Assembly (NCBI GenBank): GCA_016935835.1
Contig: JAFGQE010000158.1
Location: forward strand, 2,256-66,255
Source of the DNA: Clostridia bacterium
GTDB lineage: Bacteria; Bacillota; Clostridia; DUPQ01
Length of the DNA stretch: 64,000 nucleotides
Direction: 5' to 3'
Shown: positions 29,871 to 31,631 of the stretch, piece after piece
Position numbering within the stretch: the first letter of the stretch is position 1
Layout of the letters: every line of letters begins with the position of its first letter
The notes under the pieces: generated by a model
What the model was told of the DNA's origin: nothing
Databases searched by the model: none
The model's input: only the letters and a program-made list of their open reading frames with translations
Position numbers and translations under genes: made by a program

Positions 29871-31631
29871 CTACTTCTTTCTGTTTTTATATTTTGTGTG
29901 CAGCAGATGATGGGATTTCTCGCCCAAAGGCTTTATGAGAAATTCATCGTACAGTTTTTTTATTGCTGGATTTTCATGCGATTTGCGAATCGGAAGAGCT
30001 CCGTCCGCACGGTAGATGGCATCCATTCTTTTCAGCCTTAGCTCATCGGTTCCGCCGAACGGTTGTCCGCCGCCACCGATGCATCCGCCCGGGCAGCACA
30101 TTATTTCTATGAAAGCATATTCCGCCTTGCCGGATTTGATCAATTCCATGACCTTCCTTGCATTTGACAAGGAGTGGGCCACGGCGACTTTAACGATTGT
30201 TCCGTTCAGATCCACCGCTGCCTCCTTGATTCCCTCAAGGCCCCTGACCGCCTTGAAATCCAGAGATTCAAGCGTTTTTCCGGTCACTACTTCATAAACG
30301 GTCCTCAATGCGGCTTCCATAACGCCGCCGGTGGCTCCGAATATCACGGCTGCACCCGTTGAAAGTCCGAAGGGGGCATCGTAATCCTCCTCATCCAGCT
30401 GATTGAAGTCAACGCCGGCCTGGCGAAGCATTTTCCCAAGTTCCCTTGTTGTCAGAACCACATCGACATCCGGATTTTTCCCGTCGATTGACATTTCATC
30501 GCGTACGGCCTCAAACTTCTTGGCTGTGCAAGGCATTATTGAAACGCTGAATATATCTTCCGGTTTCTTTCCGATTTTTTCAGCGTAATAGCCCTTTGCC
30601 AGCGCCCCGAACATCTGCTGGGGCGACTTGCAGCTTGAAAGATGTGCAAGCAATTCGGGGTAGTATTGCTCTATGAAATTAATCCAGCCAGGGCTGCAGG
30701 AAGTGAGCATCGGAAGCACTCCTCCATGGTTGATACGCTCAAGCAGTTCATGCCCTTCCTCGATTATGGTAAGGTCCGCGGTAAAATCAGTGTCGAAGAC
30801 CTTGTCAAAGCCCAATGCCCGCAAAGATGCGACAAGTTTTCCCGTAACGATTGCACCGGGGTCGAGACCGAACTCCTCCCCGATGGAGACCCTTACCGCC
30901 GGAGCCGTCTGTACTACAACGGTTTTATCAGGATCATTGATCGCTTCCCAAACGCGCTCGATGTCCTCTTTCTCGGTTATGGCCGCAACGGGGCAGACAA
31001 CGGAACATTGCCCGCATGCGACACAGGCCACATCTCCCAGATACCAGCCGAATGCAGGCTTGACCTCGACATCGCCGCTTCTGCCGATATAGTCCAGGAT
31101 TGCAAGACCCTGTACCTTGGCGCACATCTGGATGCATCTTCCGCATTTTATGCATTTGTTCTGGTTTCTTTCTATTGACGGACTGCTGGTGTCTATTTCA
31201 CGGTGTACGAGTATGTTTTCAAAGCGGCTTTCCCTGACGCCCAGGTTTGCGGCTATCTCCTGAAGGCCGCAATGATTGTTCTTCTTGCAGGCGGTGCAGT
31301 TCATGTCGTGGTTTGCAAGAAGCAGTTCAACGACAACCTTCCTGGCCTGACGCACCTTCTGCGTATTGGTCCTGATAACCATGCCTTCCCTTACAGATGT
31401 TGCGCAGGCGGCCTGGAGGGTTTTGCAACCGTCGACCTCGACTACACATACCCTGCAGTTTGCCTTGATTTCCTGGTCGGGATGATAACAAAGGTTCGGT
31501 ATGGTTATACCTGTGTCCTTTGCTGCGTGAAGTATCGACGTCCCCTCGGGGACACTGACCGCCCGGTTGTTTATCTTTGCATTTACCATGTTCATATCAT
31601 ACCTCCTATACGGCAGCGGAATCCGTTGCAT
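29871..31631 (-). CDS. hydA: [FeFe] hydrogenase catalytic subunit (HydA, bifurcating-type, with N-terminal 2Fe-2S and F-cluster domains)
   Basis: H-cluster motifs L2 MPCTAKKFE and L3 [16 protein letters not shown]. The L1 motif is TSCSPGW rather than the canonical TSCCPxW. Confidence 0.85.
   Translation of the reverse strand: [586 protein letters not shown]

Follow-up and report, generated by a model that had tools for sequence, protein, structure and literature searches.

A natural serine variant of H-cluster motif L1 in the [FeFe]-hydrogenase of a likely non-bifurcating HydABC operon from a Clostridia bacterium

The closest described systems to the hydrogenase considered here are the HydABC complexes of Acetobacterium woodii and Thermoanaerobacter kivui, for which structures are available (Katsyv et al. 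2023, JACS; PMC10021017). In the A. woodii complex, Ser301 was modelled as a ligand of the [4Fe-4S] subcluster of the H-cluster ([4Fe-4S]H), and the enzyme that carries it is bidirectional and bifurcating, with normal activity and normal H-cluster infrared signatures (PMC10021017). This precedent shows that the H-cluster can be normal with Ser at the ligand site of motif L1. Kertess et al. (2017, Chem Sci; PMC5855289) reported Ser at this position in about 20% of putative hydrogenase sequences and mutated C115 of CrHydA1, which is the same ligand site (the relay Cys is C114). The variants C115S, C115D and C115A bound little cluster and had an activity below 1, and the authors suggest that a neighbouring Cys can substitute in C115A (PMC5855289). 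In Melainabacteria ACD20, motif 1 of the 'confurcating' hydrogenases reads TSCSPGW (Di Rienzi et al. 2013; PMC3787301). Our search of the literature on TSCSP returned this incidental mention only and no dedicated study of the Ser variant, and the search on a serine ligand and the H-cluster returned nothing relevant beyond Katsyv et al. 2023. The Ser variant of L1 is therefore already documented, only in passing. Here we describe a HydA with this variant, encoded by a three-gene hydCBA operon in a 64,000-nucleotide stretch of DNA (hereafter the window) from a Clostridia bacterium (assembly GCA_016935835.1, contig JAFGQE010000158.1, positions 2,256 to 66,255 of the forward strand; Table 1). With a probability of roughly 75%, we read this HydA as a catalytically competent group A [FeFe]-hydrogenase with a Ser301-ligated [4Fe-4S]H, working in a non-bifurcating HydABC that is coupled to nicotinamide adenine dinucleotide (NAD(H)).

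Residues of HydA are numbered here from Met13 of the listed hydA open reading frame (ORF; 29871..31631, 586 amino acids), which extends 12 codons further upstream and overlaps hydB by 26 nucleotides. Met13, at 31595, is probably the true start, because all of the 120 closest HydA homologs (572-578 amino acids) begin with an MNMV-like sequence at its equivalent and because the 10-nucleotide spacing that it leaves after the hydB stop codon matches that of related loci (~10 nucleotides). In this numbering, L1 reads T298-S299-C300-S301-P302-G303-W304, with Ser301 encoded by AGC at 30693-30695 (plus-strand coordinates; reverse-complement translation of 30600..30780). HydA thus departs from the textbook form of L1, TSCCPxW with four Cys ligands for [4Fe-4S]H, in having Ser301 instead. 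An earlier note on this DNA had reported TSCSP in place of TSCCP within 30670-30700, with the first Cys of L1 as proton relay and the second position as cluster ligand, L2 (MPCTAKKFE) and L3 intact, and canonical TSCCPAW in a paralogous HydA at 50994..52736. The translations and residue assignments agree with it on each of these points, and the AGC codon lies inside that interval. The note had also allowed that the motif might be offset, so that a Cys does occupy the ligand position; this is contradicted by HMMER alignments to solved structures (54-58% identity, ungapped at L1), which have zero gaps for tens of residues on both sides of L1 and place Ser301 on Cys299 of T. kivui HydA1 (8a6t_A), Ser301 of A. 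woodii HydA1 (7q4v_A) and Cys300 of CpI. The Trp at motif position 7 likewise anchors the register.

Membership of the family is supported along the whole protein. Pfam matches cover the H-domain (PF02906, E=1.4e-100; PF02256, E=2e-25) and the N-terminal F-domain (PF13510, PF10588, PF12838 and PF14697), in the M3 layout of 2Fe-2S, His-ligated 4Fe-4S, two 4Fe-4S and H-domain. The score is 534 bits for TIGR02512 (cutoff 406) and 900 bits for the NCBIfam model NF040763 ('NADH-dependent [FeFe] hydrogenase, group A6'; curated cutoff 765). The HMMER matches include T. kivui HydA1 (E=8e-200), A. woodii HydA1 (E=5e-198) and CpI (about 1e-144). A Ser at the L1 ligand position is compatible with this membership, since 16-20% of members share the departure, among them an active enzyme of solved structure.

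Ser301 is highly conserved among relatives of HydA. The 120 closest homologs are the best proteins from a 5.8-billion-protein collection (71-100% identity to HydA), and their L1 reads TSCSPGW in 116 cases, TSCSPCW in one, TSCCPGW in two and TSCCSGW in one. We also gathered 80 species-representative genomes by patterns that exclude the L1 motif itself, and 75 of them carry TSCSPGW; these genomes span Clostridia, Christensenellaceae, Oscillospiraceae, Syntrophaceae, Marinimicrobia/Fidelibacterota, Aminicenantes, WOR-3, Bacteroidales, KSB1 and Phycisphaerae. TSCSPGW is likewise found in 120 of 120 Smithella and Syntrophus-like homologs of locus L033, a Syntrophales-rich group. The codons for this Ser split into 47 of the AGY family and 30 of the TCN family, and AGC, AGT, TCT, TCC, TCG and TCA are all in use among the species genomes. 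Both codon families occur inside the close clade (77-96% identity), where loci L008, L009 and L012 (77-78% identity) have TCG or TCT and loci L001-L007 have AGC or AGT. Passing between AGY and TCN takes two mutations, for which Cys (TGY) is one possible single-step intermediate. A Cys-bearing protein (P0042) is 94% identical to two Ser-bearing ones (P0037 and P0038), so Ser and Cys interchange over short distances. The conservation of Ser together with the mixture of Ser codons excludes a one-off error and indicates long-term maintenance. Judged from these comparisons, Ser301 is a recurrent, selectively maintained natural variant of L1.

If TSCSP marked one lineage, as the earlier note had suggested checking by alignment, the Ser state would be expected to define a clade. 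A HMMER scan of 1.84 billion representatives at 50% identity gave 2405 matches at E<=1e-30, and a census alignment was built from 149 of the best 150 matches (a 4122-residue protein, P0121, was left out) plus the two HydAs of the window, 151 sequences in all. A Cys-Ser pair at the relay and ligand positions, with L2 intact, is present in 24 of these 151 representatives (16%), versus 107 with Cys-Cys. Together with the figure of about 20% given by Kertess et al. (PMC5855289), this does not support the view that Ser at L1 is unusual. A neighbour-joining tree built from the H-domain is star-like and weakly resolved; the Ser proteins do not group together on it but are spread over its branches, and Fitch parsimony required 17 changes for 19 Ser taxa, close to the mean of 17.8 for shuffled labels. 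From these sequences, TSCSP clearly does not form a single clade; it is stable within families of >=70% identity and variable between them. The TSCSP cluster representatives with names are Natronincola peptidivorans and some metagenome-assembled genomes. The protein left out of the census, P0121, is the top representative match; it has seven H-domain stretches, each with an L3-like EIMMCEGGC, and a pattern search recognised no TSCCP-type L1 in it. Either a giant fusion of several hydrogenases or an artefact of assembly could account for it.

The gene order in the window, hydC, hydB and hydA, is the NuoE-NuoF-HydA order that the earlier note had described, and the note had called the operon bifurcating-type. 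HydB aligns to residues 151-557 of 626 in Thermotoga maritima HydB, 116-529 of 599 in A. woodii and 151-560 of 630 in T. kivui. The N-terminal [2Fe-2S] and the C-terminal 2x[4Fe-4S] domains are absent from HydB, with zero Fer4 or 2Fe-2S Pfam matches, and the core is followed by a tail of just 8 residues. The same short subunit is encoded at 28 of the 28 closest loci with a readable HydB. For comparison, deletion of the HydB C-terminus led to low bifurcation activity (Katsyv et al., PMC10021017).

Residue markers in HydB that separate bifurcating from non-bifurcating types were described by Losey et al. 2020 (PMC7311640), and they can be read both in the HydB of hydCBA and in that of a second hydrogenase operon in the window. 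At position 232, bifurcating types have Ala or Glu and non-bifurcating types Thr or Ser; the window HydB has Asn and the second-operon HydB Ala. Position 234 is Met in bifurcating types and Lys, Ser or Ala in non-bifurcating types, and here it is Lys in the window HydB and Met in the second. The residue at the flavin mononucleotide (FMN) site is Phe in bifurcating types and Tyr in non-bifurcating types (a Tyr described by Losey et al. as homologous to that of Nqo1); it is Tyr in the window HydB (GAGSYVCGEE) and Phe in the second. The SLBB motif is GGPSG in bifurcating types and a different sequence in non-bifurcating types, and it reads GGASG in the window HydB and GGPSG in the second (PMC7311640). 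Three of the four markers in the window HydB are therefore non-bifurcating, and the fourth (N232) fits neither type. With its core-only HydB and this residue signature, hydCBA likely encodes an NAD(H)-linked, non-bifurcating HydABC, and the designation as a bifurcating-type operon does not hold.

In the proposed mechanism, [4Fe-4S]H would be held by Cys356, Cys501 and the bridging Cys505, with the oxygen of Ser301 replacing the usual fourth thiolate; by analogy with the A. woodii structure, this would involve a direct Fe-O(Ser) bond. Cys300 would still pass protons on to the di-iron site as the final relay. HydA would be co-transcribed with the NuoE-like HydC and the minimal NuoF-like HydB, and the resulting HydABC is predicted to be NADH-dependent and non-bifurcating, coupling NAD(H) to H2 directly, with neither ferredoxin nor electron bifurcation. 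The earlier note had proposed an unusual, Ser-ligated or altered H-cluster, or else a sensory subtype, within a bifurcating-type operon. A Ser-ligated cluster remains the favoured part of that proposal, given the modelling of A. woodii Ser301 as a ligand, and its unusual, sensory and bifurcating parts are not retained.

Several observations weigh against this reading. In A. woodii the Fe-O(Ser) bond was modelled, not measured, since no map of that complex is better than 3.4 A (PMC10021017). The failure of engineered CrHydA1 C115S means that Ser is not tolerated in every background. The Asn232 of HydB is neither bifurcating (A/E) nor published non-bifurcating (T/S); it is found throughout the close clade of HydB, and more distant loci with a short HydB have Thr. 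The FMN-site marker was scored by taking 'position 367' of Losey et al. as the Phe/Tyr of GAGA[F/Y]VCGEE, and 367 is Val in T. maritima PDB numbering. Positions 232, 234 and 427-431 of Losey et al. agree with the numbering of PDB 7p5h_B, in which the Phe/Tyr that fits the description is residue 312; the mismatch may come from a slip in the paper's numbering or reflect a different reference sequence. The maturase genes hydE, hydF and hydG were not found among the large ORFs scanned in the window. Finally, an extra Cys in L3, Cys500, stands beside the ligand Cys501 and could in principle take over ligation.

This last point leads to the first alternative, a ligand swap in which Cys500 gives the fourth thiolate as one half of a tandem Cys-Cys, or in which Cys300 shifts to the cluster, leaving Ser301 in the second shell. 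Tandem Cys-Cys ligation is known from cluster N2 of complex I. The extra Cys (MCC in L3) is present in 119 of 120 close homologs versus 2 of 105 TSCCP cluster representatives, and it accompanies TSCSP in 116 of 120 close homologs and 117 of 120 Syntrophales homologs. Ala precedes the L3 ligand in 84 of 102 TSCCP but 8 of 18 TSCSP representatives, with Cys and Gly enriched in the latter; Gly follows the L1 Pro in 20 of 23 TSCSP versus 39 of 105 TSCCP representatives, and Phe precedes the L1 Thr in 6 of 23 versus 79 of 105. These co-variation counts are exploratory and ignore phylogeny, which limits what they lend to a swap. The suggestion of Kertess et al. that a neighbouring Cys substitutes in C115A (PMC5855289) also speaks for it. 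However, TSCSP with a plain MAC is found in A. woodii and in 28 of 72 loci, and since this combination is common and includes A. woodii, Cys500 is not required for a working Ser variant. Proteins with TSCCP and MCC exist as well (P0042, P0093, P0235 and P0248), and a strict coupling of Ser301 to Cys500 was rejected on these two grounds. A shift of Cys300 to the cluster would cost the enzyme its proton relay, which is hard to reconcile with the normal activity in A. woodii. We therefore regard a ligand swap as unlikely.

A related proposal concerns only the subfamily with both TSCSP and MCC, to which HydA and a large Syntrophales group belong and in which Cys500 would be functionally coupled to Ser301, either as an alternative or redox-switchable fourth ligand or as one of the second-shell changes that make Ser viable. 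The set of such changes, a small one, could comprise a residue other than Phe ahead of the motif, a Gly following the Pro, and either Cys or Gly preceding the L3 ligand. We put this forward as a speculative idea with a small chance of being right; if true, it would explain the failure of the engineered CrHydA1 Cys-to-Ser mutant. The L1 context of CrHydA1 is PMFTSCCPGW. From the sequence comparisons, it is plausible that the co-varying neighbours are the reason why the bare Cys-to-Ser mutant fails.

A second alternative holds that the Ser ligand is an adaptation of non-bifurcating NADH-dependent hydrogenases, tuning the potential of [4Fe-4S]H for NADH-driven H2 formation. Adjacent HydB could be read at 72 loci, a sample biased towards relatives of the window HydA. 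Within it, TSCSP pairs with a non-bifurcating signature at 41 loci, so that all 41 loci with that signature carry TSCSP, and the six TSCCP entries (five loci and the second operon of the window) all have a HydB with a bifurcating signature, as this alternative would have it. However, TSCSP pairs with a bifurcating signature at 19 loci, the proven bifurcating A. woodii enzyme has Ser301, and its infrared signatures are unchanged by Ser (PMC10021017). With such a bias in the sample, it is uninformative that TSCCP is absent from the non-bifurcating loci. We tried and rejected the rule that Ser301 is tied to a non-bifurcating HydB, since the 19 loci and A. woodii break it, and an adaptation of this kind is improbable.

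Two further observations concern these loci. A search with a Syntrophaceae homolog matched Smithella and Syntrophus-like proteins from metagenome-assembled genomes, all with TSCSP, and not the characterised non-bifurcating enzymes of Syntrophus aciditrophicus or Syntrophomonas wolfei. At four loci (L033, L035, L041 and L074), HydB-like proteins of ~1020-1030 amino acids with a bifurcating residue signature are encoded beside and upstream of TSCSP HydAs. They have a C-terminal extension of ~490 amino acids without ferredoxin-type CxxCxxCxxxC motifs, and their length may be inflated by simple ORF calling.

A third alternative is that HydA is a sensory or catalytically dead paralog that merely sits in a HydABC-like operon. 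One H-cluster ligand is indeed non-canonical, and a second, canonical HydA is present in the same genome. Sensory HydS proteins (groups C/D) are expected to carry a C-terminal PAS or signalling domain and to have lost the relay Cys and the proton pathway. HydA does not fit this description. The Pfam scan found neither a PAS nor another sensor or signalling domain in it, the relay Cys300 is present (CpI C299), and the proton-pathway residues E279, E282, R286 and S319 of CpI align to identical residues in HydA (CpI stretches IMEEATELVQR and NLSSAKSPQQ). The equivalents of CpI K358, M353 and M497 are also present, L2 and L3 are intact and fit the patterns MPCxxK and ExMxCxxGCxxGGGxP, and the domain layout is that of the M3 catalytic type. 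In dozens of genomes, a TSCSP HydA is the sole HydA beside HydB and HydC, and the same Ser is present in A. woodii HydA1, which works in both directions with full activity (PMC10021017). The sensory or non-canonical subtype suggested by the earlier note is thus very unlikely. A sequencing or assembly error, in which the TGC of a canonical TSCCP hydrogenase was read as AGC, is refuted by the conservation: the two codons differ by one base and the source of the window is a metagenome-assembled genome of uncultured Clostridia, but Ser is kept across homologs and species genomes in six different codons, and a 96% identical genome (L001) encodes it by AGT.

The second hydrogenase operon of the window differs from hydCBA in its HydB signature (Table 1). 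The Cys-rich ORF between hydC2 and hydB2 may, from its position, be a split-off N-terminal [2Fe-2S] domain of HydB, which suggests a four-gene (tetrameric) arrangement. On the sequence of both operons, the organism probably combines an NAD(H)-only hydrogenase with another of bifurcating type.

Table 1 Coordinates of hydrogenase-related features in the window.
Feature	Position	Strand	Remarks
Weak sigma-70-like promoter match upstream of hydC	33525..33554	minus	9/12 positions; consensus match only
hydC, NuoE-like thioredoxin-fold [2Fe-2S] subunit, 154 amino acids	32876..33340	minus	PF01257 E=8e-43
hydB, NuoF-like FMN/NAD(H) subunit, core only, 425 amino acids, one [4Fe-4S] site	31606..32883	minus	PF01512, PF10589 and SLBB only
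hydA, group A [FeFe]-hydrogenase catalytic subunit, M3 architecture	29871..31595	minus	574 amino acids from Met13 of 586-residue ORF
H-cluster motif L1, TSCSPGW, residues 298-304	30684..30704	minus	ungapped alignment to T. kivui, A. woodii and CpI
H-cluster motif L2, MPCTAK	30519..30536	minus	Cys356 ligand; Lys359 = CpI K358; kept in 120/120 close homologs
H-cluster motif L3, IM-C500-C501-PGG-C505 context	30060..30107	minus	canonical ligands Cys501 and Cys505
Cys500, extra Cys before L3 ligand Cys501 (EIMCCPGGC)	30096-30098	minus	most group A enzymes have Ala (CpI A498)
Strong intrinsic-terminator-like hairpin	29829..29854	minus	17 nucleotides past hydA stop; 11-bp stem, 7 GC pairs, T-run
Paralogous hydrogenase operon	48642..52736	plus	bifurcating-type signature; 17 kb from hydCBA
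hydC2	48642-49130	plus	
Cys-rich ORF between hydC2 and hydB2, 128 amino acids	49132-49518	plus	zero Pfam matches
hydB2 with C-terminal 2x[4Fe-4S]	49515-50981	plus	all four bifurcating residue markers (A, M, F, GGPSG)
hydA2	50994-52736	plus	TSCCPAW, IMACPGGC; 52% identical to HydA

Other gene groups surround the two operons. A cluster of Mrp/Mnh-type antiporter genes (22689-28624, plus strand) adjoins the pfk-hydCBA region; it includes an MnhE-like gene (22689-23186), an MbhD-like gene (23742-24293) and tandem paralogous MrpD/NuoL-like genes (25342-26943 and 26972-28624). At 18439-22518 (plus strand), a pair of neighbouring sulfatase genes precedes the gene of a radical-SAM/SPASM protein, which is probably a sulfatase-maturating enzyme of the anaerobic type, and a third sulfatase (46915-48432, plus strand) lies just upstream of the second hydrogenase operon. 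The sulfatases, with nearby rhamnosidase and GH38 genes, suggest a degrader of sulfated glycans. A protein with Fer2, FAD_binding_6 and NAD_binding_1 domains, an NqrF-like set, is encoded at 43845-44948 (plus strand). Its gene ends a run of short ORFs of membrane-protein size (41071-43821), which may represent an Nqr- or Rnf-type complex.

The discovery value of the Ser variant as such is small, since natural replacement of this H-cluster ligand Cys by Ser is already on record for about one sequence in five, and for an active enzyme whose structure is solved. What is added here is a census of the variant (16% of representatives, recurrent and independent of HydB type), a re-annotation of the operon and a short list of co-varying residues. 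TSCSP should not be taken to indicate that a hydrogenase is sensory or defective, and it marks neither a phylogenetic group nor bifurcation status. Annotation as a likely non-bifurcating HydABC changes the predicted redox balance, as NADH would then yield H2 only at low H2 pressure. The residues that co-vary with Ser are concrete mutagenesis targets for asking why nature tolerates Ser when the engineered mutant does not.

Among known systems, A. woodii HydA1 (PDB 7Q4V, 7Q4W and 8A5E) is the nearest counterpart of HydA: it is 54% identical over the full length, has the same M3 layout, and reads MITSCSPGW with Ser301 at the same residue number and with relay Cys, L2 and L3 intact. It differs in L3, which is MACPGGC with no extra Cys, and its partner HydB is a bifurcating subunit of 599 amino acids with N-terminal [2Fe-2S] and C-terminal 2x[4Fe-4S], whereas the window HydB is a 425-residue core. 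T. kivui HydA1 (PDB 8A6T) and CpI (e.g. 3C8Y and 4XDC) share fold, domain order and ungapped catalytic motifs with HydA; unlike it, they have canonical TSCCP, in which Cys299 (T. kivui) or Cys300 (CpI) ligates [4Fe-4S]H. Engineered CrHydA1 C115S likewise has Ser in place of the second TSCCP Cys, but it fails where natural Ser enzymes work, and its neighbouring residues differ. The Melainabacteria ACD20 enzymes resemble the window in having TSCSPGW in a trimeric NuoE-NuoF-HydA context, although there an L3 Cys is replaced by Ile and in HydA L3 is intact (PMC3787301). For the operon as a whole, the best likeness is with non-bifurcating NADH-dependent HydABC of the S. wolfei Hyd1ABC type (PMC7311640), which likewise has three genes (alpha, beta and gamma), a beta subunit without extra Fe-S domains, Lys at 234, Tyr at the FMN site and no GGPSG, and which differs from the window HydB in having Thr or Ser, not Asn, at 232 (PMC7311640).

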